Sequence record: SRR22947727_805
DNA length: 33,173 bases
Direction: 5' to 3' (one strand)
The stretch's first letter is position 1. Each line of letters opens with the position of its first letter. Position numbers and translations under genes: made by a program. This document shows positions 2,338-25,177 of the stretch, one piece after another. A model generated the notes under the pieces. That model saw only the letters and a program-made list of their open reading frames with translations, made no database searches and was not told the DNA's origin.

Positions 2338-3941
2338 CAAAATAATATCTTAATTGTTTCTTTATATGGCAAATTAGTAATTTTTTGTATCTGAATATTT
2401 TTATTTTTATCTTTTTTGAAAAAATTATAATTTATTATAGAATTTTTTATTCTATATTTTGTATTATTTTGTAATTCAATAGTAGTTTTACTTTTAGAAT
2501 ATGTCTTAATCAAATTATCATTTCTTTTAATTTTAGTAAATCGTTCTAAAAATAAATTATTATAAACTTTAACAATGCCAGAACCTTCTAATAAGTCTTC
2601 TATTTCTATGTAGTTTTCATTACAAGTGATTTTTCTTTTGTGAATAATATTATTAAAATAATCAAAACTAAATCCATCATGTTCAGAGATAAATTGAGTA
2701 GTTTTATCTTGATTATAAGTAATTAAGCTATTTACCTTCGGCCTTTTTCCTACTCTAAAGCTTTTCCAAACATCAAGCATGTTAGTTTTATTTACCGAAA
2801 GCGTGCTTTGTTTCATTGTTCCTCTTTCTATAACTCTTTTTTCCAAGTTTTCGTAAGTAGATATTCCAGAATTAGTTATTATTTTATTAAATTTGTTTGA
2901 AATTTCTAAACTAGTTATATTTGCATGTTGGTGTGCTGGAATGTAATCTGAGGCGATACCACCACTTCTAAATATTACTTTGTATTTTTTATTAATATAA
3001 ACAATATATCCACTATCTTTAAAAAAATATAATTTCCTTCTTTTTTTTTTTATATATTTCAAATCTAAGTTAAGTTTATTTGCATAGTTGTATAAATCTG
3101 AATAGCTAGGTTGAACATTTATGCAACTATCATTAAAAAAAGGTACTTGGTCATTATGATTCATAATGCTTGACCATAAAAGCATTTTATCAATCTTAAC
3201 TAATAATTTTTCACGATTTAACCTACTGCATTTTAATTGAATAATATCTAATAAATCATAAACAAATTGATTATGATACATCGGTGATTGTTCAAAATGA
3301 CCTCCGTCATCTAAAATTTGATTTTCTAATTCATTATTAAAATTTAAGTAAATTTTTTCTTTTATCTTTTTATGAAAATTATTTTCAAGCAATGAAAAAG
3401 AAAAAATTAATGCCTTATAATTTATAAATAAATGATTGCCTCTAAGGTGATATTCCATATTCATCATTATAAAATTTGTATGAATAATTAATGTCTCTAA
3501 TAATTTTTTAGATAGATAGTTATATTTAATAGACCATTTGATTAAATTTATTAACCTTAAAGATGTGGGATAAGGATCCCAAGCAATGTCTTTATAAGAT
3601 AATTCGTTTTCATCAATCCATGAATAAATTATTTTTTTTGATTCATTCTTTGAGTGATCAAAGATAAAATCTAAATAATGAATATTATAGGTAAAAAGTT
3701 TATTAAAATTTTTTTTCCAAATTTTTTTACCAAATTTTTTATTTATTTTATTTATTTTTTTAGTAAAATCATTTTGATATCGTAGAATAAAAAAACTAAA
3801 TTTTATTCTTTTACTTTTAACGTTTAAAAAATTTTTTTTTTTTAAAATAACAATTGAAAAATATCTTATTAAGTTTTTGAAAAAAAGATAAAATATTTGA
3901 TTAATTGAAAAATATTTTACTGTATTTAAATATCTAAGCAT
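2337..3941 (-). CDS. Heparinase II/III-family (alginate-lyase-like) protein typical of polysaccharide clusters
   Basis: YNIHYLDF, WDPYPTSLRLINLIK, EYHLRGNH, QILDDGGHFEQSPMYH, FFNDS, SGY, HQHAN, VWKSFRVG, HDGF...HKR motifs. Confidence 0.85.
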   Translation of the reverse strand: MLRYLNTVKYFSINQIFYLFFKNLIRYFSIVILKKKNFLNVKSKRIKFSFFILRYQNDFTKKINKINKKFGKKIWKKNFNKLFTYNIHYLDFIFDHSKNESKKIIYSWIDENELSYKDIAWDPYPTSLRLINLIKWSIKYNYLSKKLLETLIIHTNFIMMNMEYHLRGNHLFINYKALIFSFSLLENNFHKKIKEKIYLNFNNELENQILDDGGHFEQSPMYHNQFVYDLLDIIQLKCSRLNREKLLVKIDKMLLWSSIMNHNDQVPFFNDSCINVQPSYSDLYNYANKLNLDLKYIKKKRRKLYFFKDSGYIVYINKKYKVIFRSGGIASDYIPAHQHANITSLEISNKFNKIITNSGISTYENLEKRVIERGTMKQSTLSVNKTNMLDVWKSFRVGKRPKVNSLITYNQDKTTQFISEHDGFSFDYFNNIIHKRKITCNENYIEIEDLLEGSGIVKVYNNLFLERFTKIKRNDNLIKTYSKSKTTIELQNNTKYRIKNSIINYNFFKKDKNKNIQIQKITNLPYKETIKILF

Positions 3942-4100
3942 TTATATTAAACTTTTAATAAATTATTATTCTTTTTTCAAATGTATAAGAAATTTTATAT
4001 TTCTTTAGAGTTACAATAGATAATGATTTATTAATTATTATATAAAGTTATAACTTAAAAGTGTCTTAAATATATTAAAGATAAACATATCTGTTGTAGT

Positions 4101-4796
4101 CTATTTTTTATTTAAAAAAGAAAAAGTTTTAGCTAAATCTTTCTTTACATCTATATCGATTGAATATTCACTATCATCTAGTTCAAAAAAAAATATTTTT
4201 TTTCCAGTCATAGAATTTTTTTCAATAGTGTCTTTGGGTCTTATAATATCTGCATAACCAACATGATTATAAGTTTGTTCAATAAATTGCCTTCCCTTAG
4301 AATGAAATTCATTTTTTGATTTAATTAACGGTTTTGCTGCATTGTTTTTTTTAGTATACATCTTAAAAGGAGAGTGTGAAGATTTAACAAAACATCTAAG
4401 TGAGCTAAATTTTTTATTTTTAATCATTATTTCAATAATTTTTCTTATGGTTTTTTTTTTTCTAAATGGCGTTGTTGCCCTTAAATGAACAATTAAATCA
4501 ATTTTTTTTTTATTCTTTTTCTTATAATTAATATAAAAATGTTTAAACGCTTCGATATCGGTAGAGCTATCCTCTGAAATTTTTTTTGGTCTTTTAATTA
4601 TCTTCGCACCTAAACCCTTTGAAATTTTTAGAATTTTGTTAGAATCTGATGAAACATAAGTTTCATTTATTAGCTTAATTTTTTTTGATATATCAATACT
4701 ATAAAAAATTAGTGGATTTTTATTTATCTTTAAAATATTTTTATTCTTAATTCCTTTTGATCCTCCTCTTGCAGGAATAAAGGTTACTACATTCAT
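4101..4796 (-). CDS. neuA: CMP-ulosonic acid synthetase (acylneuraminate cytidylyltransferase, NeuA/PseF family)
   Basis: IPARGGSKGIKNKNI, VSSDS, RPKKIS.D, LRATTPFR and IDID motifs; substrate not determinable. Confidence 0.88.
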   Translation of the reverse strand: MNVVTFIPARGGSKGIKNKNILKINKNPLIFYSIDISKKIKLINETYVSSDSNKILKISKGLGAKIIKRPKKISEDSSTDIEAFKHFYINYKKKNKKKIDLIVHLRATTPFRKKKTIRKIIEIMIKNKKFSSLRCFVKSSHSPFKMYTKKNNAAKPLIKSKNEFHSKGRQFIEQTYNHVGYADIIRPKDTIEKNSMTGKKIFFFELDDSEYSIDIDVKKDLAKTFSFLNKK

Positions 4797-4799
4797 TAT

Positions 4800-6245
4800 T
4801 TAAATGTTATAAACTAAAGAATTAAAATTTTCTTTGTAATAATTTAATTTTTCTTTAGAAACTAATTTGTTTTTTGACACAGTTCTAAGTTGACCATCTA
4901 CCTGTTTCTCATAATCATCAAAATAATCTTTTTTTACTGAATTTGCATGCTCATTTGTTCCATAGTAAGGGCTATAAAATGCTACAGTGACATTGTCAGG
5001 TTTTAAATATTTATTAAAATCAATTGTACTTTTAATTGATTGTTCGTCTTGATCAGGTAAACCAATAATATTATATGAAGTTCTTTTGATACCATTCTCT
5101 TTTAATAGATTAAATGCTTTAATAATTTTATCTTGATCAGCAAATCTATTTAATTTTTCTTCTCTAAAATCTTCTCCAGCCAACTCAACACCCATGCCTA
5201 CTCCGTCTACATTTAAATCTTTTAACAACTTGACTGATTTTTCATTAATTCCTTCTGGTCTTGTTTCGATATATAATTTGATGTCTATTGGATTATTTAA
5301 ATATTTTTCTCTTAATTCATTTAAAATTTTTGGATTTATAGTTAAAAAATTTGTATCCTGACACCTAACTAGATCTATATTAAAATCATTTCTAAATTTA
5401 AATAATTCATCATAAATTCTTTCTGCACTTTTATTTCTTAAATAATTTTTTGCTTGTTTTAGTGCTCCTTTAGGAGTTTTTTCTTCAAAACCATAATATT
5501 TTTGAATTACAGTTTCAACACAGTAAGAACAGGTATATATGCAGCCTCTTGACATTTCATAATCAACTGCTCTTACAATATTTCCATTATAAGGTCTTAA
5601 AAAAGTTTGATCATCAAATATTTTATAATCATAGAGCGGAATATCGTTTAAATCTTTAATAATTTTTTGAGGAGCATTTTTTACTATTTGTTGATTATCA
5701 TCTAAATATGACAATCCATTGATATTTTTTAAAGTAATATTATTTTTAATATTCTTACAAATCTCAGTAAGCACAATTTCAGATTCACCTGAAATTAAAT
5801 AATCAATCTTATTAAAATTTTTAAGTATTATCTCGGGTGATGCTGTAGCTTGAATGCCTCCTGTTATCTTTAAAGATCTATCTTTTAAATTTTTAATAAG
5901 ATCATACCCGTATTGAATATTTACATATTCACCTTCGCCATGAATATGAGAGCTCAAAGCCGACCAAAACACTATATCAGGATCAAATTCATTAATTTTA
6001 TTTTCTAAATCTTTTTCAATATTGTTGTCACTAAATTTTATAATTTTTGAATAATCAGTTTTTTTATATTGTTTGTTAGCTGTGTTGTAATTTGTCTCAT
6101 CATTTGTCCATTTTTTATAAAATGTACAATCAAACAACTCTACATCAAATCCCTTTGCTTTTAAAATTGCTGAATGTGAGGCAATCCATATAGTTGTAAT
6201 GCCTCTTCCCCATTTATTTGGATTGATAAATAAAACTTTAACCAT
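4800..6245 (-). CDS. Cobalamin-binding radical SAM protein (class B methyltransferase-like architecture)
   Basis: N-terminal B12-binding-like domain (KVLFINP, TGGIQAT, SGESE) followed by SRGCIYTCSYC (CxxxCxxC), DTNF, ETRP, GVE, IIGLP and PYYGT. Confidence 0.88.
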   Translation of the reverse strand: MVKVLFINPNKWGRGITTIWIASHSAILKAKGFDVELFDCTFYKKWTNDETNYNTANKQYKKTDYSKIIKFSDNNIEKDLENKINEFDPDIVFWSALSSHIHGEGEYVNIQYGYDLIKNLKDRSLKITGGIQATASPEIILKNFNKIDYLISGESEIVLTEICKNIKNNITLKNINGLSYLDDNQQIVKNAPQKIIKDLNDIPLYDYKIFDDQTFLRPYNGNIVRAVDYEMSRGCIYTCSYCVETVIQKYYGFEEKTPKGALKQAKNYLRNKSAERIYDELFKFRNDFNIDLVRCQDTNFLTINPKILNELREKYLNNPIDIKLYIETRPEGINEKSVKLLKDLNVDGVGMGVELAGEDFREEKLNRFADQDKIIKAFNLLKENGIKRTSYNIIGLPDQDEQSIKSTIDFNKYLKPDNVTVAFYSPYYGTNEHANSVKKDYFDDYEKQVDGQLRTVSKNKLVSKEKLNYYKENFNSLVYNI

Positions 6246-6267
6246 TAGTTATATATATACTAATATA

Positions 6268-6846
6268 ATGAAACTAGCAATAATTGATCTTGAATGGACA
6301 GCTTGGAAAGGATCTCAAGAAAGAAAATGGTCTTTGGAATTTGAACAAAAAGAAATTGTAGAATTTGGACTCGTATCATTTAATAATTTTAATTCAACAA
6401 ATATAAGAAAAAAAAGTTTTTACTTTAAAACAAATAAAGAAATTTCAAATTATTTTACAAAGCTCACAAGCATTACAAAAAAATTTCATGTAGAAAGAGG
6501 AAAAAAATTTGAAGAAAATTTTTTTGAAATAAATAGGGAAATGAGTCAACATAAAATAATTTTATGTAATGGAAAAGATAAAGATATTATAATTGAAAAT
6601 TTTAAGTTAAAAAAACTACCATTACCTTTTTTTTTAAAAAAAATAAAAGATATTAGTAATATTATATCAAGTGTTCTTGATAAAGATGGAGAGCATCAAG
6701 TGAGCTCAGAGCTTCTAGACACTCTTAAAATAAAAGATTATATAAAGCACAAACATAGGGCAAGCGACGATGCTTATGCTATATTTTTAGCTTTAAAATA
6801 TTTAATTAAAAATAGAAGAGTTAAAGTTTCTGAGATTCTTAGGTAA
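6268..6846 (+). CDS. DEDDh 3'-5' exonuclease (ERI1/KapD/DnaQ-like)
   Basis: ExoI IIDLEWT, EIVEFG, YFTKLTSIT, ExoII NGKD, ExoIII HRASDDA. Start reassigned to ATG 6268 (MKLAIIDLE) because the track start at 6199 overlaps the radical SAM gene. Confidence 0.8.
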   Translation: MKLAIIDLEWTAWKGSQERKWSLEFEQKEIVEFGLVSFNNFNSTNIRKKSFYFKTNKEISNYFTKLTSITKKFHVERGKKFEENFFEINREMSQHKIILCNGKDKDIIIENFKLKKLPLPFFLKKIKDISNIISSVLDKDGEHQVSSELLDTLKIKDYIKHKHRASDDAYAIFLALKYLIKNRRVKVSEILR

Positions 6847-10275: not shown

Positions 10276-10367
10276 TAATATATGATTTTTTAATTATCAT
10301 TTATATATATATATTATTTAAATTATAATTTATAAAAAAAATTGTTAAAAGTGAATTATTTAATCTA

Positions 10368-11405: not shown

Positions 11406-11494
11406 AAGCAATTAAAACATGAGCCATTTAAAATATATTTGTTTACAATTTAAAAACTTGTTTATAAGTATTTTAATTATATTAAGTTTATGAA

Positions 11495-12367: not shown

Positions 12368-12381
12368 ACTTAATTATAATA

Positions 12382-13576: not shown

Positions 13577-14752
13577 CTACTTATTAAAAGTATCTATTCT
13601 TTTATATGAAAGTAGAGAAAAATAGAAAGATAATATAATTGCGGTATATAAATGTGTAATCGGTAGTAACAATAAAGAAATAATTAAAATATAAATTGTA
13701 AAACTAAATGTATATTCTGGATTTTTTTCAAATGAATTATCAAGAATTATTTTAAAATGGTAAAATATATAAATAGAAAGAATTCCATACCAATTATAAA
13801 TTTCAATAAATTGATTATGAAAACTTTCACTAACATTCCCCATATGTTGAGGTAGTAAAAAATTATTAATATTTAAATATTTTGTAAATTCTATAATCTC
13901 GATCATCCTATAGGCCGCTGTATTAGCTGTGGCAATATTTGTGTTTATAATAGAAAATGAAAAAACTATAAATAAGTATAAACAAAATATTATTCCTAAA
14001 CTACTATAAAATTTTAATTTACTTTGAAAAACATTAATTCTTAAAAAATTTGATGACCATGTTATGATTGATAAAAAAAGCATAACAAGAAAAGACATTT
14101 GAATCGTGCGTGATTGAGATAAATATAATACGAGAATCGATACAATAAAATAAAACGCAACCAAATGAAAGTTGCTATCTCGAAAAAAATATTTGAGTGA
14201 AAATATTAACATTGGAAGAAAAATCAATGGATAGTAATCATAAAATGAATAAATCTGAAAATTACTAAATAAAAAACCTGATTGATTTCCAGCTAAAATT
14301 GAAATTGAATTAATTAAAAGTATTAAAGAAATTATATAAAATAATATTTTTATATAATTATCAAATATGATGTTGATATTTATTGTTTTATGAAATCTAA
14401 TAAAAATATAGTAACTATTAAAAAATATTGTTAAACCTAAAAATTGTTTAAACAATCTAAACTCTATATTTTCTCGAATATATAAGCTAATAAGTAACGG
14501 AAGAAGTAATACAATATTTAACAAAACTAATTTATTTTCTAATTTAAATGGCTTAGAAAAAATAAAAATTAAAAATAAAGCTATAGCATTTAATGGAAAG
14601 ACCAAGATATCAGCACCACGACTTATTCTTACGTCAAATTTTCCTAAGACATCAAAATAAATTTTTGATCCATCTAAACCAATAAAAATTGGAGTAAAAA
14701 CCAATAAGCAGAATAATAATTTTGAATTTTTAATTAATAATTTCATAAGCAA
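13577..14752 (-). CDS. Putative O-antigen polymerase (Wzy)/ligase-like membrane protein
   Basis: About 10 hydrophobic segments, LSQSRT and SFHNQFIEIYNWYGI (Wzy_C-like His motif); alternative ATG at 14746. Confidence 0.65.
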   Translation of the reverse strand: MLMKLLIKNSKLLFCLLVFTPIFIGLDGSKIYFDVLGKFDVRISRGADILVFPLNAIALFLIFIFSKPFKLENKLVLLNIVLLLPLLISLYIRENIEFRLFKQFLGLTIFFNSYYIFIRFHKTININIIFDNYIKILFYIISLILLINSISILAGNQSGFLFSNFQIYSFYDYYPLIFLPMLIFSLKYFFRDSNFHLVAFYFIVSILVLYLSQSRTIQMSFLVMLFLSIITWSSNFLRINVFQSKLKFYSSLGIIFCLYLFIVFSFSIINTNIATANTAAYRMIEIIEFTKYLNINNFLLPQHMGNVSESFHNQFIEIYNWYGILSIYIFYHFKIILDNSFEKNPEYTFSFTIYILIISLLLLPITHLYTAIILSFYFSLLSYKRIDTFNK

Positions 14753-16112
14753 TACTTTTCCTGCTAGAACCCAAACTATAATTTAGTTGTGATTTAAAGA
14801 TCTGTCTTCTTCCTTTCTGATTATAATTTTTATCATCTAAATATATATTTACATATTTTCTAAATTGGTCATAATTTTTAACATAAGTTACACCTTTTAA
14901 CTTTTTAATAATTTTCATATGTGACCACATATCAACATACGCTTCTTGATTACAATAAATACAATTTTTTTTATGGAAATTTATAAGAGGATTAATAACA
15001 GGTTTATCAAAATAAATGGCGTCCAATATGGTGGTTGAATAAAAACTAATTATAATATCACTGTGGTTTATTAAGTTTCCAAACAAAAATAAATCTTTTT
15101 TAAAATTACCAATTTCATTATAAGATTTTGCTGTAAAAGAGTTTGGTGGTTTTTCCATTTTAATATTATTAAATTTTTTAAATTTATTAAAATTAAAATT
15201 ACCTGCGGGATGAGATCTAAACCATAATTGTGTTTTTTTATTAAATTCATTTTTATGTGACATTGAAGCAATTTTGTGAATTATATCCTCTATATGGGGA
15301 ACATACTGATCTGATGGACCAAAAATAGTAATAAGTTTTTTTTTAGTATCAAGATTATTTTTATTAAAAAAAAATTTTTTTGTTTGTGGTTGAAAATTGT
15401 TAAAATCTTCAAGATTAGGTAGGCCTATTACTTTCACATCTTTATCTTTATATTCATAAATATACTTCGCTTGTTTTTTTAAAGTATTATTCCAAACTAA
15501 TAATTTTTTAAAATCATATGGCATTTTAAATTTACTTGTTAAATTGTCCCAACTGTGAATGAGAGCAATTTTTTTTAAATTAAATAAATTTGAAAATAAT
15601 TGCAGAGGAAAATCAATATTAGCAAAAGGATGTGCTGTAAAAAAAATTTGGGGTTTATATTTTAAAAATATAAAAACATAATTTGGATAAAAAATAATTG
15701 TCATAAAAAATCTCAGAGCTTTTAAGATTTTTATAATCATCTCATTGGATAATAAATTTAAAATCTTATTATTTAAAAATTTAAATGGTTTTATAACCTC
15801 ATTTGAACAATTATTAGAATGCATTTTTTTGAAAGTTTCTAAAGTTAAAATTTTTTTTTTTTTTAAAAGTTTGATTGTTGTTAAATTATTAATCAGAAAA
15901 TTTATCAAATTTAAGAAAATATTAATTTTATGATATTGGTAGTATTTTATATTTTTTTTGTTAATAAATTTAAAAAAAAGACTTTTATTTTTTTTCATTG
16001 GTGAGAAAATAATTAAATTAAAATTCTTGAACTCATCAATAAATTTTTTATCAATTAGATTTTTAATTGACATTGCATATGGTAAACTTAAAATTATAGT
16101 CTTTTTTTTCAT
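14730..16112 (-). CDS. GT-B protein, CDP-glycerol glycerophosphotransferase-like; candidate ulosonic acid transferase
   Basis: HSWDNLTSK, VWN, IGLP, FRSHP and STTILDAIYFDKPVI motifs; the HP and ST motifs are typical of CMP/CDP-donor GT-B enzymes. Confidence 0.6.
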   Translation of the reverse strand: MKKKTIILSLPYAMSIKNLIDKKFIDEFKNFNLIIFSPMKKNKSLFFKFINKKNIKYYQYHKINIFLNLINFLINNLTTIKLLKKKKILTLETFKKMHSNNCSNEVIKPFKFLNNKILNLLSNEMIIKILKALRFFMTIIFYPNYVFIFLKYKPQIFFTAHPFANIDFPLQLFSNLFNLKKIALIHSWDNLTSKFKMPYDFKKLLVWNNTLKKQAKYIYEYKDKDVKVIGLPNLEDFNNFQPQTKKFFFNKNNLDTKKKLITIFGPSDQYVPHIEDIIHKIASMSHKNEFNKKTQLWFRSHPAGNFNFNKFKKFNNIKMEKPPNSFTAKSYNEIGNFKKDLFLFGNLINHSDIIISFYSTTILDAIYFDKPVINPLINFHKKNCIYCNQEAYVDMWSHMKIIKKLKGVTYVKNYDQFRKYVNIYLDDKNYNQKGRRQIFKSQLNYSLGSSRKSIAYEIIN

Positions 16113-16117
16113 TTTGA

Positions 16118-17395
16118 TCAGTTTGGTAATTTTTTTTCGATAAATTTAATATCTGATTTATGATAATGTTTTTCTACTCTATATCTATAATCAATATAAA
16201 ATTTTGATTTGTTAATTTTTTTTTTTTTATTTTTCAAATAAATAAAATCATGAATAAAATAATCAAATTTTACAAATATAAAATATTTAATTATTTGTTT
16301 CATTTCAAATAATTTACTTAGTTTACTTTCTCTTTTATAATCCAATTTTTCTAAGCTATCAGTGATAATTTTAATTGAATCAAGCTTATTATTTTTAAAT
16401 CTAAAGTCTTCTAATAAAGTCACATCTAATTGATTTTTTTTCATTTTTTTAAAAATCTTTAAAAATTTTTTAAAATCTTCAAAATTTTTAATAGTTGGAT
16501 ATTTTACTTTTTCACCCTTAAGGGTTGTGTGCCATGGATCATTTTTTAGTGATAAATTAATTATAAATTTATTTAGTATTGAAGCTTCAGTTAAAGTGTG
16601 GCAATTTCTTCCAATAATAATATCTGATTGCTCAATTACACCTTCTATATAATCTCCAACTGAGATTTTAAAATTTTTTTCAGAATGCTCAAAATTTTTA
16701 ATCCACATATCTGGCTTTTCATATGGATGAATTTTTAAAATTATATTTAAATTAGAATATTTTGTAATTAATTTTTTAAGAAAGTTAATACAACTCTTTC
16801 TGTGCTTAGACTCTTTTAACGCTAAATCTTTATTTATTTCATGTTTAAAAGTATCATTTGGAAAATCATGATAATCAGCTCCTAGAAAGTTTGAAACAAA
16901 TAAAATATTTATTTTATTTTTTTTCTTATAATTTTTAGTTAATTTTTTTCTAAAATTTTTATATTTTTTTGTATAACTAATTAATCTATGGAATCCTGAA
17001 TAAATAACTTTTACATTACTATTTTTATTAAACTTTTTTGTTAAATTAAAAATTTTTTTTCTCCATGCAAAAATAATATCTAGATGTTCATATCCAAAAT
17101 TGTTTCCATGAGCTAACTCTATTTTTGCTTTATCTATAAATGGATTTCCTTCAGAGGGTAAACTTACAACATTACATCCAAATTTTTTAAGATTTAATGA
17201 AATATTTTTCCACTCCTTAGTAAGCACTTGTGTTAAAATAACAGTATCTACTTTTTTTTTTATTGCTACGGGTAGCTCCATACCGTTTCTACAAAAAAAA
17301 ACCTTACTGCCTTTTTTTTCTAGTTTTTTCTTAATTATTAAAAGTGAAATAAGGTCTCTAAGTTTATGATCAACCATAAACAAAAAAATTTTCAT
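16118..17395 (-). CDS. Surface carbohydrate biosynthesis protein (GT-B-like); candidate ulosonic acid transferase
   Basis: N-terminal KLRDL, PSEG, FAW, SGFHR, VSNF, KIHPYE and CHTLTEASILNK motifs. Confidence 0.55.
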   Translation of the reverse strand: MKIFLFMVDHKLRDLISLLIIKKKLEKKGSKVFFCRNGMELPVAIKKKVDTVILTQVLTKEWKNISLNLKKFGCNVVSLPSEGNPFIDKAKIELAHGNNFGYEHLDIIFAWRKKIFNLTKKFNKNSNVKVIYSGFHRLISYTKKYKNFRKKLTKNYKKKNKINILFVSNFLGADYHDFPNDTFKHEINKDLALKESKHRKSCINFLKKLITKYSNLNIILKIHPYEKPDMWIKNFEHSEKNFKISVGDYIEGVIEQSDIIIGRNCHTLTEASILNKFIINLSLKNDPWHTTLKGEKVKYPTIKNFEDFKKFLKIFKKMKKNQLDVTLLEDFRFKNNKLDSIKIITDSLEKLDYKRESKLSKLFEMKQIIKYFIFVKFDYFIHDFIYLKNKKKKINKSKFYIDYRYRVEKHYHKSDIKFIEKKLPN

Positions 17396-17399
17396 GGAA

Positions 17400-19142
17400 T
17401 TATTCTTCTATTAATTGGTAATTAGTTAAATTATATACTTTCGAACAATGCATTAAACTTGATTCACGATGAGCAACCATGATTATTGTGTGATTTTTTG
17501 AGATTTGCATGAGATTATTAATTATTTTTGATTCAGTTTTATTATCTAAAGAACTTGTAGCCTCATCTAAAATAATTAATGGCTTAGGATCGTACATAGC
17601 TCTTGCAAAACCCAATCTTTGTTTTTGACCACCTGATATTCTGGCTCCTCTTTCTCCAATAATTGTTTGTTGTCCTTTTTCTAAATTATTGATAAATTCA
17701 CCTATCTCACTGATACTAATAGCTTTAATAAATTTATTGTTATCATCACTAAGTTCATCTCTATGAAAAATTATATTATTTTTAATCGTATCATCTAACA
17801 AATAAATATCTTGGGGTACATAAGAGATACTATTGTACCAATCATTTTTTATGTCTTGAATAGAAATTCCATCAATTAAAATTGACCCTTTATCTGGAGA
17901 ACTTAAACCCATCAAAATTTCTAAAAATGTACTTTTGCCAGCCCCCGTGACCCCCTTTATGCCAATAAAATCTCCTTTTTTAATTTTAAATTCACTAAAG
18001 TCTAAAATTTTTTTTCCGTAAGAAACATAAATATTTTTTAATTCTATATTTTCAAAATTTACTTGTGATGATCTTGGATTATTATTTATTTCATCTATAA
18101 AAGAATTATCATTTATGATATCCATGTAGTTTAAAAAATTTACACTTCCTGCGGTTAAAGCTTGAAGAGACATAAACATTTTATTAATTATTGGCAACAT
18201 TCTGAATAATGCAAAGCCAAACACTGAAATTAATTTAACCGTTTCAATTTTATCAATATCAGCAATTAAAGATATGAAGATCACTAAAATTAAAACTAAC
18301 AAGCCTAAAAATTCTAATGCATTTTTGGTCAATAGTGGCAAGTATGTATTTTTTGTATGCGCTTGATTTGCTTTTATAGCAGTATGCATTGCAATATTTA
18401 GAAACTCATTTGTTTTTTGAACTAACTTAATTTCTTTAATTGCTCCAAAAATTTGTTGAATATTTTTAATCCAATTACCATCATTTAATTGTTGGCTAAA
18501 ACTACTTCTAGTTAATATTTTATAAGTTAGAAATTTCATACATAAAAATAATAATACAACTAGTACTAATAAAATTAAAAAAACTTTAGCATCATAAATA
18601 AAAAGATAGATGATAAAAAAAAAAATAATGATTGAACTTACAAAAAGAGTTATTACCGGATTAAGCACTCTAGAAAGCATAAAGCTAACTTCTGAAGTTA
18701 GGTTTCTAACTAAAACAGAAGTGTTTTCTTTTTTAAAAAATTTTACGTTATTATATAAATATTTTTCTAGTAATCTTTTTTGCAAAATATTTTTAATTAT
18801 AAAAACTAATTTTGTTTGATAAATAACCAAAAAACAATCATATAAAAATTTAAATACTGAAAAACAAATTAAAAAATAAATAATATAATTAAAGTTGAAT
18901 GATTTATCTTGAAGAAATGACATATCTATAAAAGGATCTAAAAAATCAATGCTATTACCAATTCCATTATCGTTTATAAAAAAGTCAACAAAAATTGGAA
19001 TAAGAGACAATAAAAAAATCTCCATAAAAGCTCCAATTAAAACTAAAGGGAATAATATAAAAATTTTCCTTTTTGTAATTTTATCAATAATATTAAAAAA
19101 ACTTACAATTAGTTTACTTGTTATGGTTGAACTCTCTACCAA
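17400..19142 (-). CDS. ABC transporter fused permease/ATPase, PglK/Wzk-like lipid-linked glycan flippase
   Basis: TM domain with IKEIKL and FRMLP; Walker A GVTGAGKST, Q-loop YVPQ, signature ISGGQKQR, Walker B ILDEATSSLD, H-loop VAHR. Start placed at TTG 19142, preceded by GGAGG; the ORF track extends to 19190. Confidence 0.88.
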   Translation of the reverse strand: MVESSTITSKLIVSFFNIIDKITKRKIFILFPLVLIGAFMEIFLLSLIPIFVDFFINDNGIGNSIDFLDPFIDMSFLQDKSFNFNYIIYFLICFSVFKFLYDCFLVIYQTKLVFIIKNILQKRLLEKYLYNNVKFFKKENTSVLVRNLTSEVSFMLSRVLNPVITLFVSSIIIFFFIIYLFIYDAKVFLILLVLVVLLFLCMKFLTYKILTRSSFSQQLNDGNWIKNIQQIFGAIKEIKLVQKTNEFLNIAMHTAIKANQAHTKNTYLPLLTKNALEFLGLLVLILVIFISLIADIDKIETVKLISVFGFALFRMLPIINKMFMSLQALTAGSVNFLNYMDIINDNSFIDEINNNPRSSQVNFENIELKNIYVSYGKKILDFSEFKIKKGDFIGIKGVTGAGKSTFLEILMGLSSPDKGSILIDGISIQDIKNDWYNSISYVPQDIYLLDDTIKNNIIFHRDELSDDNNKFIKAISISEIGEFINNLEKGQQTIIGERGARISGGQKQRLGFARAMYDPKPLIILDEATSSLDNKTESKIINNLMQISKNHTIIMVAHRESSLMHCSKVYNLTNYQLIEE

Positions 19143-19930
19143 GCTGTCCTCCCACCATCCACGGAAATGACTGCACCATTCATATAACAATTTTCATCTG
19201 ACAGCATCCAAACGATAGTGCTATTATAATCGTTTTGTTTTGCCATCCTTTTTAATGGTATAAGTTTTTCAATCTTTTTTAAAAAACTTTTGTTTTGGTT
19301 ATTTTGTATTCCACCTGGACACAAACAATTAGATCTAACATTTTTATCTGACCAATATGTTGATAAATATTTAGTTAATCCAATCATTCCACTTTTTACA
19401 ATAGAATAAGATATTGCTTTTTTTGAATTAACTTTTTCTTGTTTATATAAATTTTGGTTTGGTGCAATAAGACCGAGGTCTGATGAAATATTTATTATTG
19501 TTCCACCTTTTTTGTTTTTTGAAATTTGGGTACCAAATATTTTAGAACATAAAAAAGCTCCTGTTAGACCAACACTTAAATCATCATTCCAATTTTTTAG
19601 ACTAAAATTTTCTAAAAAATTAGATTTAGTAGAGTTAGGTTGATGGTTGTTAGCAGCATTATTAATTAAGCAGTCAATTTTATTAAATTTTTTTAATACT
19701 TTTTTTTGAATAAGAATAAGTTCTCTTTCATTCGTTATATCACACTTAAAAGATATTATTTTTTTATTAAACTTAGATAATAAATGTTTTTTAAGAAAAT
19801 TTATTTTTTTTTGAGATTTATCAAGTACTATCGGAATACCATCATAGCTTAAAATTGATTCTACAAAATTTGTGCCAAGCAGTCCTGCGCCACCAGTAAT
19901 AATAATAATTTTATTTTTTAAAGAAAACAT
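19136..19930 (-). CDS. SDR oxidoreductase, PtmA (flagellin modification protein A)-like
   Basis: TGGAGLLG, INNAA, NISSDLG, YSIVK, CPGGI, and VDGGRTAW C-terminus. Confidence 0.85.
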   Translation of the reverse strand: MFSLKNKIIIITGGAGLLGTNFVESILSYDGIPIVLDKSQKKINFLKKHLLSKFNKKIISFKCDITNERELILIQKKVLKKFNKIDCLINNAANNHQPNSTKSNFLENFSLKNWNDDLSVGLTGAFLCSKIFGTQISKNKKGGTIINISSDLGLIAPNQNLYKQEKVNSKKAISYSIVKSGMIGLTKYLSTYWSDKNVRSNCLCPGGIQNNQNKSFLKKIEKLIPLKRMAKQNDYNSTIVWMLSDENCYMNGAVISVDGGRTAW

Positions 19931-19931
19931 T

Positions 19932-20699
19932 CTAGTGATTTAGTTGCCCACCATCCACTACAACTTCTTCCCCATTAACAAAAGAGGCTTTAGATGATGA
20001 TAAAAATAAAACAACATTAGCTACCTCATTTGCTGATGCAAATCTTTGTAAAGGAACATTTGACTCTATATATTTAACTACTTTTTTTTTATTTTTTCTT
20101 ATTTTTTTATCCCATGAATTTCCTTCTTGCATAATGTTTCCGGGTGAAACCACGTTTATTCTCATATTTTTGTCAATTTTTTTTGACATATTCTTACAAA
20201 AATAGCTCAATGTTTTTTTAGCAACTGAATACTCAACAGGAGCATTTAACAATTCTTTACCTGTAATTGAAGAAATTGCAATTATATTTCCATGTTTTTT
20301 CTTAACTAATTTATAGAAACAATCAAAAGTATTTTTAAAAGATAAAAAATTTTTATTCCACGAATAATCCCATTTTTTTTTATCAATAACAACGTCTCTA
20401 GTACCAATACCAGAACCCACACTGCTAACAAGAATATCTATACCTTTAAATTTTAAGTTTATTTTTTTACTAAATTTTGCTACTGAAGATATATTTTCAT
20501 GATCTACTAAATAAGGGTAAATTTGACTTTGCTTATACTTTTTTTTTAATTTTTTTTCTGCTTTTTTTAGATTATTTAAATTACTGGATGTAATAATAAC
20601 CTGCGAATCTTCTTTAATATAATTTTCTGCTATTGCATAACCTAATCCTTTAGATGCACCTGCAATTAAAACAATTTTTTTTTTTAAGTTTAAATCCAT
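19932..20699 (-). CDS. SDR oxidoreductase
   Basis: AGASKGLG, ISSITG, YSVAK, NVVSPGNI, VVDGG. Confidence 0.88.
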   Translation of the reverse strand: MDLNLKKKIVLIAGASKGLGYAIAENYIKEDSQVIITSSNLNNLKKAEKKLKKKYKQSQIYPYLVDHENISSVAKFSKKINLKFKGIDILVSSVGSGIGTRDVVIDKKKWDYSWNKNFLSFKNTFDCFYKLVKKKHGNIIAISSITGKELLNAPVEYSVAKKTLSYFCKNMSKKIDKNMRINVVSPGNIMQEGNSWDKKIRKNKKKVVKYIESNVPLQRFASANEVANVVLFLSSSKASFVNGEEVVVDGGQLNH

Positions 20700-20702
20700 T
20701 AA

Positions 20703-21443
20703 TTAAATTCCTTTTGCGGACCACCCTCCATCTACAGTAATATCCGATCCAGTAACATAACTTGAAGCTTTTGATGAGAGAAAAATTACTGCTCCTACTA
20801 AATCTTTTGTTTCACCCCATCTGTTAAGTAAAGTTTTAGACTTTCTTAGATTAAACAATTTATTATTTTTATAACTTTTTATTGTCATTTTTGTTTTAAT
20901 ATATCCTGGTACTAAATTGTTAACTCTTATTCCAAATTTAGATAAATCATATGCTAAAGATCTAGTAAGACCAGAAAGACCAGATTTACTAGATATATAA
21001 CCTGGGTTATTTGGGAACCCAAATTGAGAAGCGATGCTTGTTATATTGATTATACTAGAACCTTTTTTTAGATAATTTTGGGCTATATTGCACACCTTGT
21101 ATATACCAATTAGGTTGGTTTCTAATATCAATTTAAAATCTGATATTTTTTGTAATTTTTTTGACCCACTGACACTCTCACTAATACCTGCTACATTAAT
21201 CAGGACATCTATTCTTCCAAAATTTTTTTTTATTTTTTTTAATGCAGATATTATTTCTTTTTCATTTTTTATAGAGCATTTTATATGATTTTTTTTTTTT
21301 AATTTTGTTCTTCCCAAGGTGATAACTGTTGAACCTAACAACGAAAGTTCTTGTGCAATTTTTGCACCAATTCCTCTTGATCCACCAACTATAACAATAA
21401 CTTTTTTTTTTATGTTAAAAAAATATTCTATTTTATTTTTCAT
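20703..21443 (-). CDS. SDR oxidoreductase (gluconate 5-dehydrogenase/KduD-like)
   Basis: VGGSRGIG, INVAG, NITS, YISSK, PGYIKT, RWG, TVDGGW. Confidence 0.88.
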   Translation of the reverse strand: MKNKIEYFFNIKKKVIVIVGGSRGIGAKIAQELSLLGSTVITLGRTKLKKKNHIKCSIKNEKEIISALKKIKKNFGRIDVLINVAGISESVSGSKKLQKISDFKLILETNLIGIYKVCNIAQNYLKKGSSIINITSIASQFGFPNNPGYISSKSGLSGLTRSLAYDLSKFGIRVNNLVPGYIKTKMTIKSYKNNKLFNLRKSKTLLNRWGETKDLVGAVIFLSSKASSYVTGSDITVDGGWSAKGI

Positions 21444-22260
21444 TTATCAGTTTCTTCAAAATTTTATATTGTTTTTTAAAAATATTTAGACCTTTTCGAT
21501 CTCTATACATTTGAAGGATAAAATCTCCTTTATAATTATTTTGTTTAAGTAATTTAAAAATTTTTTTTAAATCAACGTCTCCTTTTCCCAGAAAAATTGG
21601 TCCTCCCTTATAACGTCTATCTTTAATATGAACTTCAGATATTTTTGATCCATACACCTTGAACTCTTCTTCAGGATCATAACCTAAAGCTGCACTATTT
21701 CCAGTATCATAATTGATAGTAATATATTTAGATTTAAATCTATTAATCAAAATCAAAAATTTTTTAGGTGGTAAGTCCGTTTCTAATGAAATATTTATTT
21801 TTACCTTATCAAGTAAATGTTTAATTTTATTCATTTGAGATACAAATAAATCCAATTTTTTTTTTGAGTTTAAACTTGATTGATCGACACATGGTAAAAT
21901 AATATTTTTAACATTTAAAAATTTTGCATTTTTAATAACTTTTTCTAAAGTAAATAAATTTAGTTTAGATTTATCCGGATTGTTCACGAATATTGGATTT
22001 TCCATAAAATAGTCAGCACATATTGATTCTACTCTTACGTTAGTCAAAATTTGAATTTTTTTTATTTCTTTTAGTCCTTCTTTTGAAATTAGAGGATTTA
22101 AATGTGGGTAAAAATTATCAAATATAAATTCAATTGTTTTTAAGCCTAATTTTTTTGCTAAATAAAATTCTTTTTGCCAGTTAAAAGCAGGAAAACATTG
22201 ATATCTTTCATCAATTTTGGGAAGCAATCTTCCTTGCATTATCCCTAATTTTAGTTGCAT
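21433..22260 (-). CDS. Sugar phosphate isomerase/epimerase (xylose isomerase-like TIM barrel, UlaE/AP-endonuclease-2 family)
   Basis: GIMQGRL, SICADYFM, LETD, NYDTGNS, HIKDR, LGKGDVD. Confidence 0.82.
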   Translation of the reverse strand: MQLKLGIMQGRLLPKIDERYQCFPAFNWQKEFYLAKKLGLKTIEFIFDNFYPHLNPLISKEGLKEIKKIQILTNVRVESICADYFMENPIFVNNPDKSKLNLFTLEKVIKNAKFLNVKNIILPCVDQSSLNSKKKLDLFVSQMNKIKHLLDKVKINISLETDLPPKKFLILINRFKSKYITINYDTGNSAALGYDPEEEFKVYGSKISEVHIKDRRYKGGPIFLGKGDVDLKKIFKLLKQNNYKGDFILQMYRDRKGLNIFKKQYKILKKLINEK

Positions 22261-22270
22261 AGAATATTTT

Positions 22271-23107
22271 TTAATAAATATGCTGTCTTAATTTTTCAGC
22301 ATTAACTTTTTCATCCTCAGAAAATATTTTTATACCATCCCCCATTGCTTTTTCGACTTTTCTAACTTGATCTATTAAATTTTTTAGACCATTTGGCTCA
22401 ATGGATGCTGATTGATCAGAGCCATACATTGTTCTATCTAAAGTAATATGTCTTTCTAGTGATGTTATTCCCAAACTAGATGCTGCAACAGAAATTGCTA
22501 AGCCACTCTCATGTCCACTATATCCAACATCACATGAAAATTTTTTTCTTAAAGTTTCTATCATTCTCAAATTTGCATCTTCTGGTTTCATTGGATAAGT
22601 TGAGATACAGTGCATTAATTCAAATGAACAATTTTCTTTTTTAAAAATTTCTACCGCGCGTTGAATATTATCAATTTCACACATTCCAGTGGAAATAAAA
22701 GTATGTTTTTTTTCTTTTGCTACTTCGAAAAGAAGTTCTTCATATACGATCATTGGGCTAGCTATTTTATTATATTTTGTATCAAATTTTTTTAAAAAAT
22801 CTTGACTATTTAAATCCCATGCCGAAGCGAACCATTCGATATTTAACTTTTTACATATAAGATCAATTTGCTTATAATCATTTAAGTCAAATTCTAAACC
22901 TAACTTTTGGTCTCTTTGAGTTTTTCCCCAAGGACTTTCTCTAGTTGCATCAAGATATTCTTGTGTATAGACTTTATTTATATCTCTTTTTTGAAATTTT
23001 ACAGCATCACATCCTGATACTTTTGCAGTCTTAATTAAATCTTCACAAGTTTTTATGTCACCATTATGATTTATCCCAATTTCTCCAATTATAAAAATTT
23101 TTTTCAT
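22271..23107 (-). CDS. NeuB-family ulosonic acid synthase lacking the C-terminal SAF/antifreeze domain
   Basis: EIGINHNG, KFQKR, KIAS, STGM, HCISTYP, GYSGHE, LERHITL, GSDQSASIEP; only 278 aa. Confidence 0.9.
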   Translation of the reverse strand: MKKIFIIGEIGINHNGDIKTCEDLIKTAKVSGCDAVKFQKRDINKVYTQEYLDATRESPWGKTQRDQKLGLEFDLNDYKQIDLICKKLNIEWFASAWDLNSQDFLKKFDTKYNKIASPMIVYEELLFEVAKEKKHTFISTGMCEIDNIQRAVEIFKKENCSFELMHCISTYPMKPEDANLRMIETLRKKFSCDVGYSGHESGLAISVAASSLGITSLERHITLDRTMYGSDQSASIEPNGLKNLIDQVRKVEKAMGDGIKIFSEDEKVNAEKLRQHIY

Positions 23108-23117
23108 TAAGAATTTT

Positions 23118-24185
23118 TTATATTAATTTAGGTATTCTTTTAACATCTAAATGTGATAATTTCAAAGGTGTTCCTTTTTTTAAAGAGAATTTTATTTTTT
23201 TTCCGATTAAATACTTTTTATATATTGGATGCAGACCATGTGCTGGTCTAACAACTTTTATATTTTTTTCTGATATCTTGTCATTTTTTTTAATATTTTC
23301 AGATACAAATATTGATCTTCTAAATAATCTTGGTTCTTTTTCATTTTTATCTCTATTAAAATTTTCATCACCTAATGTTGAATGAGCTTCTTTTATCATT
23401 TTAACAAATTTAGAAAATTCGTTAGTATCCATTGAAAATTTTCCATCCAAACCATTTTCACCGGGAAGTTTTATATGTTTTTCAATTATTTTTGCACCCA
23501 ATGGGATAGAACTAACTGCAGTAATGCTTCCAATTGTATGATCAGATAATCCTACAATTAAATTATATCTTTTTATAAGTTTAGATATAAATTTTAGATT
23601 ATAATCTTTAGGCTCAGTTGGATATTTGCTTATACAATGTAATAGAGCAATTTGCTTTGCACCAGACTTCTTTGCTACAGATAATGCAATATCGATATCT
23701 TTTATTGATGCCATTCCTGTAGAAATTATTATCGGTTTTCCTGTTCTGCTTACTGCCTCAATTAATGGAATATCTGTTATTTCAAATGAAGCAATTTTGA
23801 ATGCTGGAGTGCTCAGTTTAGATAAAAATTTAACTGCATTTAAATCAAATGGGGTGCTAAAGCATAATATTTTCTTTTTTTTTGCAAAATTAAAAATTTT
23901 TTTATGCCAACTTTCAGGTGTTGAACCCTTTACATAAAGATCATATAAGTAGCTTCCTTTCCACAAGCCCTCTTTTATTAAAAATTCTTTTCTTTTTGAA
24001 TTTATTGTCATAGAATCTGGTGTATAACTTTGTAACTTTATTGCGTCTGCACCACTTTGTTTTGCTTTATCAATTAATGAATAAATGTTTGACAACTTTC
24101 CATTATGATTAGCAGATAACTCTGCAATAATAAAAGGTTTTGATTTGTGATCAATTTTATATTTACCTAATTTAAAAATAGTCAT
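23118..24185 (-). CDS. pseI: Pseudaminic acid synthase
   Basis: AELSANHNG, KLQSYTPDSMT, LWKG..LYDLY, KIASFE, GLSDHT, FRRS and SAF domain VRPAHGL; adjacent to pseB. Confidence 0.9.
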   Translation of the reverse strand: MTIFKLGKYKIDHKSKPFIIAELSANHNGKLSNIYSLIDKAKQSGADAIKLQSYTPDSMTINSKRKEFLIKEGLWKGSYLYDLYVKGSTPESWHKKIFNFAKKKKILCFSTPFDLNAVKFLSKLSTPAFKIASFEITDIPLIEAVSRTGKPIIISTGMASIKDIDIALSVAKKSGAKQIALLHCISKYPTEPKDYNLKFISKLIKRYNLIVGLSDHTIGSITAVSSIPLGAKIIEKHIKLPGENGLDGKFSMDTNEFSKFVKMIKEAHSTLGDENFNRDKNEKEPRLFRRSIFVSENIKKNDKISEKNIKVVRPAHGLHPIYKKYLIGKKIKFSLKKGTPLKLSHLDVKRIPKLI

Positions 24186-24193
24186 GAATATTT

Positions 24194-25177
24194 TTAGTTT
24201 ATTAATTTATTAATTTGATTAATATTTAAGAAATGTCTATTTGTTCCAGAATTATATTCAAAAAAATTTTTTAACATTTTACCTTTTTCTTTAGAAGAGT
24301 TTATAAAATAATTTCTTTGTTTGTAAAATACAATTGAAGGTTTAACAATGTAATAATTTTTAAATTCGATAACGTTTAAACATTCTTCTTTATTAAACAT
24401 TGTTTCGTGTAATTTCTCACCAGGTCTAATCCCAACTATTTTTTTTTTAATTTTGCTATCAAATGCATTTGCTAAATCCAGTATTCTAATAGATGGGATC
24501 TTAGGAATAAACATCTCACCACCTTTCATATTCTTAACCGAATTACACACAAAATCATAAGCCTGATCAAGCGTTATCCAAAACCTTGTCATATTTTTAT
24601 CAGTAATTGGAATAAACTTTGATTTTTCCTTAATCAATCTTTTAAAAAAAGGAATTACTGAACCTCTCGATCCAGAAACGTTTCCATATCTTACTACTGA
24701 AAATAAAGTTTTTGATGTAGAAATATTGTTAGCAGCTACCATTAATTTATCGGAAGCTAATTTGGTTACTCCATAAAAATTAATTGGATTACTAGCTTTG
24801 TCTGTTGATAATGCTAACACTTTTTTAATCTTACACTCTATAGCAACATCTATAATATTTTTAGCCCCATTGATGTTTGTTTTAATATATTCATCTGGAT
24901 TATATTCAGCTGCTACCACTTGTTTTAAAGCCGCAGCATGTATCAATATATCTATTCCTCTACAGGCTCTTAAAAGCCTCTCTTTATCTCTTATATCTCC
25001 CAAAAAAAACCTTAGTTTATCAGATCTAAATTTATTCATCATATTAAACTGTTTGAGCTCATCTCTAGAATAAATAATTATTTTCTTTGGATTATATTTT
25101 TTTAAAGTTTTTTCTACAAATTCGTTACCAAAAGATCCTGTGCCTCCTGTAATTAAAATTATTTTATTTGTGAACAT
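24194..25177 (-). CDS. pseB: UDP-N-acetylglucosamine 4,6-dehydratase (inverting)
   Basis: TGGTGSFG, YSRDELKQ, HAAALKQV..AEYNP, LSTDKA.NPIN.YG.TKL, RYGNV.GSRGSVIPFF, GIRPGEKLHE. Confidence 0.95.
   Translation of the reverse strand: MFTNKIILITGGTGSFGNEFVEKTLKKYNPKKIIIYSRDELKQFNMMNKFRSDKLRFFLGDIRDKERLLRACRGIDILIHAAALKQVVAAEYNPDEYIKTNINGAKNIIDVAIECKIKKVLALSTDKASNPINFYGVTKLASDKLMVAANNISTSKTLFSVVRYGNVSGSRGSVIPFFKRLIKEKSKFIPITDKNMTRFWITLDQAYDFVCNSVKNMKGGEMFIPKIPSIRILDLANAFDSKIKKKIVGIRPGEKLHETMFNKEECLNVIEFKNYYIVKPSIVFYKQRNYFINSSKEKGKMLKNFFEYNSGTNRHFLNINQINKLIN

Follow-up and report, generated by a model that had tools for sequence, protein, structure and literature searches.

A short synthase beside a pseudaminic acid cluster

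The stretch of DNA analysed here, SRR22947727_805 (33,173 nt; hereafter the window, to the whole of which all coordinates refer), is an AT-rich glycan biosynthesis locus with 18-30% G+C. Our subject is a set of genes that centres on sNeuB, a short NeuB-type synthase encoded next to pseI, the synthase gene of a pseudaminic acid (Pse) cluster. Eight genes follow pseI (23118-24185) on the minus strand, in one orientation and between 23107 and 14730, in agreement with the original prediction. They are packed as tightly as was claimed, with gaps of 10 nt or less, or overlaps, along all eight. From pseI onwards the spacings are 10, 10, -11, 3 and 1 nt, followed by an overlap and then by 4 and 5 nt. 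The run of co-oriented genes goes further than had been described; it extends over 12 genes from PseB (25177) to a GT1 gene (12382), and beyond the eight genes it includes a membrane protein with eight transmembrane segments as well as the GT1 gene.

The domain calls made earlier for the eight genes also agree with Pfam and NCBIfam: a NeuB protein without SAF domain, a triose-phosphate isomerase (TIM) barrel, three short-chain dehydrogenases/reductases (SDRs), an ATP-binding cassette (ABC) protein and two proteins outside Pfam, all on the minus strand. The SAF-less sNeuB (22271..23107; 278 aa; PF03102, 238 bits) is a candidate synthase that would condense phosphoenolpyruvate (PEP) to an ulosonate or ulosonate phosphate. 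It is followed by a xylose-isomerase-like barrel, distantly UlaE-like and here called TIM (21433..22260; PF01261, 82 bits), by the classical SDRs SDR1 (20703..21443; PF13561, 171.5 bits) and SDR2 (19932..20699; PF13561, 133 bits), and by the PtmA-like SDR3 (19136..19930; NF006619, 185.9 bits, cutoff 255). An ABC half-transporter of the PglK/MsbA type (17400..19190; ABC_tran and ABC_membrane), a candidate flippase or exporter, precedes two proteins with no Pfam family. These are T1 (16118..17395; TIGR04396, 113 bits, cutoff 125), a candidate transferase for ulosonates activated with cytidine monophosphate (CMP), and T2 (14730..16112), a second and more divergent candidate transferase.

Judged by its model scores, sNeuB is not an equivalog of NeuB or of PseI. 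It reaches 245 bits against TIGR03569 (NeuB; equivalog cutoff 399.65) and 190.5 bits against TIGR03586 (PseI; cutoff 340.25). The SAF domain (PF08666), which is present in the adjoining PseI, was not detected in sNeuB, whose sole Pfam domain is PF03102. Alignment with Neisseria meningitidis NeuB (1xuu) shows that residues E25, K129, S132, H215, E234 and H236 are kept, the counterparts of E25, E234, H215 and H236 being E9, E218, H199 and H220. The position of the catalytic E134 is taken by Met119, which is invariant in all of the 16 family members aligned. The family also has an invariant basic loop (R56...R65...K68). Its position is the one that the introduction of one study (PMC8208679) gives for a loop of the human enzyme that contacts phosphate, and this suggests a link between the two.

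Relatives of sNeuB are abundant and strongly conserved across phyla: each of the at least 8000 candidates scored had E <= 0.001, and among the 120 matches listed those past the closest ones share about 70% identity and are 273-297 aa long. NeuB homologues without SAF are a recognised sequence class that makes up about 30% of 13,941 UniProt synthases, for which the available part of PMC8208679 gives no function. The closest solved structure is 6ncs, an uncharacterised short synthase chain of 290 residues (132 bits).

TIM scores 70.4 bits against NF009689 (UlaE/SgbU), under the cutoff of 200, and its nearest solved relative is UlaE itself (3cqh, E=1e-8). E160, D185 and H211 are invariant in the TIM family and Q250 nearly so; the first three align with UlaE and Gln250 takes the fourth position. 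We take these four aligned positions to be the metal ligands of UlaE. Each of the three SDRs carries a Gly-rich motif and a Ser...YxxxK arrangement, and SDR3 reaches 136.9 bits against the PtmA model NF050062 (cutoff 350). The overlap between SDR3 and the ABC gene measures 55 nt from the listed TTG start and 7 nt from a TTG at 19142. The latter is preceded by GGAGG and is probably the true start. The ABC protein has a fused architecture of transmembrane and nucleotide-binding domains and scores 244 bits against the PglK model (cutoff 1000) and 231 bits against the MsbA model (cutoff 602).

The two last genes had been called orphan transferases, a description that no longer holds for T1. In addition to its sub-threshold TIGR04396 match, T1 scores 111.9 bits against NF046086 (BFO_1060; cutoff 200). 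It also weakly matches the TIGR04396 protein of a legionaminic acid (Leg) cluster in Azospirillum, with the HP motif aligned (E=2e-8). Deleting members of the TIGR04396/BFO_1060 family in Tannerella forsythia removes a terminal Pse or Leg derivative, according to the available part of PMC5420450. For T2 the family match is weak and partial (TIGR04396, 21.4 bits; NF046086, 38.3 bits, in the C-terminal part), and look-alikes found with a language model carry PF04464, which is TagB/TagF-like and serves as a lead only. Pairwise comparison detected no similarity between T1 and T2, nor between T2 and a 391-aa membrane protein. Elsewhere in the window a WecA-like initiating transferase adjoins a Wzy_C-domain protein (6802-8996, -), the latter weakly like the O-oligosaccharyltransferase TfpM (35.9 bits, cutoff 600). 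The final carrier of the glycan may be lipid A-core or proteins.

Recurrent partners of sNeuB

A genome scan with an alignment of sNeuB matched at least 602 stretches, of which 595 encode a relative, and we examined the best 80 loci. Partner counts refer to the fetched flanks, which are at most 10 kb and shorter at several loci. The open reading frames (ORFs) of the loci were compared with the window proteins, and families were named by Pfam and NCBIfam on subsets of 95 ORFs from 12 loci, 14 ORFs and 30 ORFs.

The most frequent neighbours are a KdsC-like phosphatase of the haloacid dehalogenase (HAD) type (46/80 loci), a PF02348 cytidylyltransferase (44/80) and a GmhA-like sugar isomerase (SIS) protein (33/80). 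One or more of this trio is found in 70 of the 80 loci, and they are often fused together or to sNeuB. HAD-SIS fusions occur in eight loci and cytidylyltransferase-HAD fusions in at least seven. Proteins of 683-685 aa that join cytidylyltransferase, HAD and sNeuB are encoded in Streptosporangium and Herbidospora (L066-L068, at 8774-10831), and no isomerase was found among the flanking ORFs of these three loci. The HAD proteins near sNeuB match both KdsC models and models of the phosphatase acting on the 9-phosphate of 2-keto-3-deoxy-D-glycero-D-galacto-nononate (Kdn), with 80-102 bits against NF058599 (cutoff 180). Where at least 120 aa of the GmhA-like gene were matched, it lies within 1.5 kb of sNeuB or is fused to a HAD phosphatase in 21 of 31 cases, and in 12 cases 17 nt or less separate it from sNeuB.

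SDR3 is the commonest accessory partner (27/80), followed by TIM (25/80), a DegT-type aminotransferase (21/80), an acetolactate-synthase-like thiamine pyrophosphate (TPP) enzyme (19/80) and SDR2 (18/80). Less frequent are the ABC transporter (16/80, relatives at 25-39% identity), PseB (13/80), PseI (11/80), SDR1 (10/80), an oxidoreductase of the GFO/IDH/MocA family (9/80) and more distant relatives of a B12-binding radical-SAM enzyme of the window (8/80). T1 or T2 occurs in none of the 80. TIM and SDR3 are found together in 24 loci from many phyla, 17 of which have neither PseI nor PseB in their flanks. Because 22 of these 24 also hold either SDR2 or a GFO-family enzyme, the two look interchangeable. 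An aminotransferase is present in 19 of the 24, which bears on the earlier guess that the acid is not N-acetylated.

We placed the synthases of 78 loci in a maximum-likelihood tree together with sNeuB and PseI of the window. The window sNeuB falls inside a clade with 100/99 support, in which 9 of the 20 rows have both TIM and SDR3, and PseI joins the family from outside on a very long branch. The closest neighbour of the window sNeuB is the synthase of L001, a locus with its genes arranged as GmhA-like, HAD, sNeuB, cytidylyltransferase. The tree is at odds with taxonomy. Its branches mix phyla and domains, the archaea Nitrosopumilus and Nitrosopelagicus are nested in bacterial clades, and the Pelagibacteraceae appear at several places; this departure from taxonomy indicates frequent lateral transfer of the module. 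The available part of PMC8397731 touches on NeuA and NeuB of Thaumarchaeota in passing only, and a literature search on ulosonic acid in SAR11 found no paper.

One group of loci raises a question about the fate of the keto acid. In loci from Acidobacteriota, Verrucomicrobiota and Planctomycetota (L061, L065 and L071-L077, at about 10000-13300) sNeuB is followed by a HAD phosphatase and a TPP enzyme; as a rule a DegT aminotransferase is present and a cytidylyltransferase is lacking. The keto acid of this clade may be no more than an intermediate on the way to a decarboxylated compound. Could the same hold for the whole family, so that the product of sNeuB is decarboxylated and rebuilt, for example, and never becomes a glycan residue itself? 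The TPP enzyme accompanies sNeuB and HAD in 19 of the 80 loci, and those of the Acidobacteriota type usually lack a cytidylyltransferase, as this idea would have it. Against it, the window has a dedicated cytidylyltransferase and no TPP enzyme by tblastn, a search that also found no GFO enzyme or class IV aminotransferase there. Furthermore, T1 is related to a family of nonulosonic acid transferases, and the window sNeuB lies outside the TPP-rich clade. We regard a mere intermediate as highly improbable.

A second example of the window's gene set comes from a plasmid. A protein search of plasmids with sNeuB matched 165 records, the best of which is a plasmid of Azospirillum thermophilum (53.5% identity). 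There a PhyH-family gene (E=3e-28 to window 1429-2340) precedes a cytidylyltransferase (33% identity, E=5e-45 to window 4101-4796), which in turn precedes a radical-SAM gene (55% identity over 478 aa to window 4800-6245). A 3'-5' exonuclease-like gene follows (L081, 22596-23213; 31% identity to window 6199-6846), and a methyltransferase gene separates it from the counterpart of SDR1 (43%), which precedes that of TIM (37%). Counterparts of SDR2 (33%) and SDR3 (38%) are also present, and an IS21 insertion lies between the latter and sNeuB. The plasmid sNeuB (53%) comes with a HAD protein and adjoins the Leg cluster that holds the TIGR04396 protein mentioned above. When TIM was used to search the plasmid collection, the matches were the Azospirillum record and one ordinary UlaE only.

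By these similarities nine window genes are conserved as a set with the plasmid, and four of them lie outside 14730-23107, the interval to which the pathway had been confined. That confinement does not hold, as the four sit at 1429-6846. They are the cytidylyltransferase that we assign to the second pathway (4101..4796, -; PF02348; PseF model, 93.4 bits, cutoff 205.7), the B12-binding radical-SAM enzyme (4800..6245, -; PF04055 and PF02310), a DEDD exonuclease-like protein (6199..6846, +; PF00929, 32.6 bits) and a PhyH-like protein (1429..2340, -), a possible Fe/2-oxoglutarate hydroxylase with a weak PF05721 match. A GmhA-like SIS isomerase (746..1315, -; TIGR00441, 188.8 bits, cutoff 209.45) that adjoins gmd is a possible further pathway gene outside the interval, although its assignment is uncertain. 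Window and plasmid alike have a DEDD/RNase T-like exonuclease homologue next to the B12-radical-SAM gene. Between the cytidylyltransferase and the PhyH-like gene the window encodes a heparinase II/III-like protein (2337-3941, -; PF07940 and PF16889), which has no counterpart in the Azospirillum locus.

A check for co-occurrence of the five enzymes sNeuB, TIM and the three SDRs had been set beforehand, and its outcome speaks for the earlier interpretation. All five are found together in A. thermophilum, and TIM and SDR3 recur with sNeuB in 24 of the 80 loci, so the arrangement is more than chance.

One pathway or two

One set of genes in the window is of the pseudaminic type: PseB, PseC, a GNAT protein, a PIG-L/formyltransferase pair, PseI and a fusion of cytidylyltransferase and aminotransferase. 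PseI and PseB (23118..25177, -) are context genes that belong to a separate pseudaminic acid pathway. PseI (23118-24185, -), with NeuB and SAF domains, scores 431.3 bits against TIGR03586 (cutoff 340.25), and PseB (24194-25177, -) scores 486.3 bits against TIGR03589 (cutoff 407.75). The PseC-like aminotransferase (27029-28177, -) reaches 372 bits, under the PseC cutoff of 423.5, and the PseH-like GNAT 35.6 bits where the cutoff is 93.1; the pathway is somewhat atypical for this reason. PseG was not found in the window. A PIG-L-type deacetylase (25494-26174, -) and a formyltransferase-like gene (26320-26994, +) lie between PseB and PseC, and such a pair also stands alongside PseI/PseB in three of the surveyed loci (L003, L033 and L046). 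Since a preprint ties a similar pair in the Leg cluster of Kuenenia to free-amine or formylated nonulosonic acids, the Pse derivative of the window may, by analogy, carry N-formyl groups or have lost part of its N-acetyl groups.

In total, two synthases and two cytidylyltransferases are encoded in the window. One of the latter is part of a 680-aa fusion (30847-32889, -) of PF02348 with a class III (GSA-like) aminotransferase, the halves of which are separate genes in the pse clusters of L018, L022 and L001. The aminotransferase half also adjoins sNeuB in L053. The other lies at 4101-4796, and it is this copy that the cytidylyltransferases adjoining sNeuB in related loci match best within the window. 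As the fused copy maps to those of pse clusters, the copy at 4101-4796 is left for sNeuB.

We consider it moderately probable that two ulosonic acid pathways lie side by side here, one of the pseudaminic type and one centred on sNeuB that follows the logic of Kdn and 3-deoxy-D-manno-octulosonate (Kdo) biosynthesis. A second pathway apart from pseudaminic acid had been proposed originally, and it is still the best reading, as the partners of sNeuB recur and most of the loci with TIM and SDR3 lack PseI and PseB. The accompanying proposal, that an aldose or aldose phosphate is condensed with PEP, has gained ground too: the conserved GmhA-like, KdsC-like and cytidylyltransferase partners, several of them fused, point there.

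The window might also be read as holding a single pathway, in which TIM, the SDRs and the radical-SAM enzyme act on CMP-pseudaminic acid itself by epimerisation, deoxygenation and C-methylation, and sNeuB is an alternative or redundant synthase. SDR pairs of Acinetobacter epimerise CMP-legionaminic acid, and the present set has a cluster for a nonulosonic acid directly at its side, for Pse in the window and for Leg in Azospirillum. PseI or PseB is nearby in 7 of the 24 loci with TIM and SDR3, and tblastn found no phosphatase in the window that would serve a phosphosugar route. Moreover, a C10 acid of Magnetospirillum, to which we return below, has the oxidation state of Leg and Pse plus CH2 according to the available part of its report, and C-methylation of a nonulosonic acid could yield it. 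That said, the other 17 of the 24 loci have neither PseI nor PseB in flanks of up to 10 kb, and conservation of the set extends to a second synthase and also to a second cytidylyltransferase. In addition, the nucleotide-sugar route to Pse makes no use of the isomerase and phosphatase that are conserved partners of sNeuB. We rate a single pathway as unlikely, and the earlier alternative, in which pseudaminic acid itself is the substrate that the SDRs and TIM epimerise, as less likely than a second pathway.

The proposed route, its precedents and its meaning

Working from the gene and domain content, the conservation, the fusions and the co-occurrence, all of which are observed, we infer every substrate, the order of the steps and the product of the second pathway as follows. 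A GmhA-type isomerase would provide an aldose phosphate of manno configuration, in the simplest case D-glycero-D-manno-heptose 7-phosphate, which sNeuB would condense with PEP to a 3-deoxy-ulosonate phosphate. A KdsC-like phosphatase, for which related loci have a gene and the window has none, would take off the phosphate, and the cytidylyltransferase at 4101-4796 would activate the acid. TIM, a dehydrogenase (SDR2, or a GFO enzyme elsewhere) and the PtmA-like SDR3 most likely epimerise the sugar or remove an oxygen from it, by way of a keto intermediate. Further tailoring could be due to SDR1, the PhyH-like protein and the B12-radical-SAM enzyme, which is likely of the C-methyltransferase type. 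T1, and perhaps T2, would transfer the acid of the sNeuB route, pseudaminic acid or both, and the ABC protein would export the lipid-linked product.

Heptose 7-phosphate is the simplest substrate because the partner isomerase resembles phosphoheptose isomerases and sugar kinases are rarely nearby; condensed with PEP it would give a C10 acid. The GmhA-like protein of the window matches the phosphoheptose isomerase of Campylobacter jejuni (1tk9) with 175 bits over 168 aligned residues. It and the 11 sNeuB-linked copies that were scanned score 85-194 bits, below the TIGR00441 cutoff of 209.45. Sugar kinase genes were found near the GmhA-like gene in just 2 of 33 loci (L049 and L054; 62 of the 79 remaining ORFs scanned), and a kinase-type gene was found in L004, a locus without GmhA-like gene.

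The same evidence bears on a simpler product, an ordinary C9 acid of the Kdn type made from mannose 6-phosphate and then epimerised, with the GmhA-like gene of the window belonging to an unrelated GDP- or ADP-heptose pathway. NeuB-family synthases that make Kdn 9-phosphate from mannose 6-phosphate are characterised, as far as the available part of PMC6200933 reports, and Kdn polymers of Streptomyces walls are cited in PMC9000132, also seen in part. The HAD proteins near sNeuB match the model of the Kdn 9-phosphate phosphatase at the 80-102 bits given above, no GmhA-like gene lies near the tri-domain fusions of actinomycetes, and the window gmhA adjoins gmd. What speaks for a heptose instead is the phosphoheptose-isomerase-like partner, beside sNeuB or fused to a phosphatase in 21 of 31 cases, which mannose 6-phosphate would not need, together with the scarcity of sugar kinases. 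On balance a Kdn-type acid seems rather improbable.

Several observations weigh against a second pathway of the kind proposed. No KdsC-like HAD phosphatase was found in the window (tblastn, best E=0.16), although a study of Kdn in P. parvum likewise found no phosphatase, and such phosphatases are termed functionally redundant in the available part of that paper (PMC6200933). The GmhA-like gene of the window lies about 21 kb from sNeuB, adjoins gmd and might work in a nucleotide-heptose pathway instead, as its counterparts do in L049 and L054, and as probably holds for L004, all three with sugar kinase genes close by. Forty-seven of the 80 loci lack a GmhA-like gene in their flanks, so which aldose phosphate is used is not settled even at the level of the family. 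None of the 80 loci encodes a relative of T1 or T2. With Met at the position of the catalytic E134 of N. meningitidis NeuB, even the condensation with PEP is putative. The gene set adjoins a cluster for another nonulosonic acid, Pse in the window and Leg in Azospirillum. Finally, all 80 loci were picked via sNeuB, so the counts are no gauge of how frequent TIM and the SDRs are apart from it.

Among characterised systems the Kdn pathway is closest in logic. There PEP and a sugar phosphate are joined by a synthase of the NeuB family, and a KdsC-family phosphatase and a cytidylyltransferase follow, as described in the available part of PMC6200933. The sNeuB set differs in its recurrent GmhA-type isomerase, its TIM, SDR and radical-SAM tailoring genes, the Met at E134 and the lack of a window phosphatase. 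The Kdo pathway (KdsD, KdsA, KdsC and KdsB) has the same four steps: a SIS isomerase, a PEP-condensing synthase, a HAD phosphatase and CMP activation. Here, in contrast, the synthase is NeuB-type and not KdsA-type, the isomerase is GmhA-like and not KdsD-like, and the cytidylyltransferase is of the acylneuraminate type (PF02348) with its best score on the PseF model. With NeuB, PseI and LegI, sNeuB shares the Pfam NeuB domain, the metal-binding His pair and most residues of the PEP site; it differs from them in having no SAF domain, in scoring under the NeuB and PseI equivalog cutoffs and in the Met at E134.

The tailoring genes have parallels as well. The inositol (IolG/IolE/IolD) and levoglucosan (LgdA/LgdB) triads and the Acinetobacter aci/ela modules combine a dehydrogenase with a TIM enzyme or a second reductase and pass through a keto intermediate. 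Their likeness to the window set is one of enzyme family and logic only; GFO, TIM and TPP families recur near sNeuB. In the KL1 and KL2 capsule loci of Serratia marcescens a NeuB is fused to a COG1082 TIM-type domain and Kdn is made, according to the available part of PMC9000132. This is again a NeuB-type synthase tied to a xylose-isomerase-like TIM, and the acid is the non-aminated Kdn; the likeness is by that paper's description, and the two are fused there, whereas sNeuB and TIM are separate genes here. A NeuB-TIM fusion is also encoded in Prochlorococcus (L049). Its NeuB part is 32% identical to sNeuB, and comparison of its TIM half with the window TIM gave no significant similarity (E=0.016).

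CMP-activated C10 keto-acid sugars have been detected by mass spectrometry in Magnetospirillum gryphiswaldense (bioRxiv 10.64898/2026.04.20.719630). The terms 'radical SAM' and 'methyltransferase' do not appear in the main text of that preprint, which names no gene cluster for the C10 acid in the part available. A C10 backbone could arise here from a GmhA-like isomerase together with sNeuB, or from the B12-radical-SAM enzyme; the Magnetospirillum acid, as reported there, carries two N-acetyl groups. We put forward, tentatively and as a doubtful possibility, that the genes so far missing for C10 CMP-ulosonic acids are those of the SAF-less NeuB clade and of the GmhA-type isomerase and KdsC-like phosphatase that go with it, and that the organism of the window displays one alongside its Pse derivative. 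Under this proposal D-glycero-D-manno-heptose 7-phosphate and PEP would yield a 3-deoxy-decaulosonate, which TIM, the SDRs, aminotransferases and the B12-radical-SAM enzyme would remodel. The module would have spread laterally in marine, soil and gut bacteria and in ammonia-oxidising archaea.

Our literature search, which left most subscription journals outside, found no paper on this gene set or on heptose 7-phosphate as the substrate of a NeuB-type enzyme, and a search for literature joining nonulosonic acids with phosphoheptose isomerase returned nothing relevant; one aimed at C10 and C11 sugar acids found no paper. The original prediction that the pathway is novel stands in so far as no characterised pathway with this gene set was found; its core logic has precedents and matches the Kdn and Kdo routes.

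In summary, the sNeuB gene set is a real conserved pathway with a putative function, a variant of ulosonic acid biosynthesis that needs no separate category. Surface sugars such as Kdo and the sialic, legionaminic and pseudaminic acids have a key role and affect phage recognition, flagellar assembly and host interactions. The sNeuB family, with its fixed set of partners and no assigned product, is found in Pelagibacteraceae, Nitrosopumilus, Lachnospiraceae, Omnitrophota and other abundant uncultured lineages. Proteins of this type carry the blanket annotation 'N-acetylneuraminate synthase', which is open to correction. Lastly, a defined gene set makes the mass-spectrometric observation of C10 keto-acid sugars a testable question.

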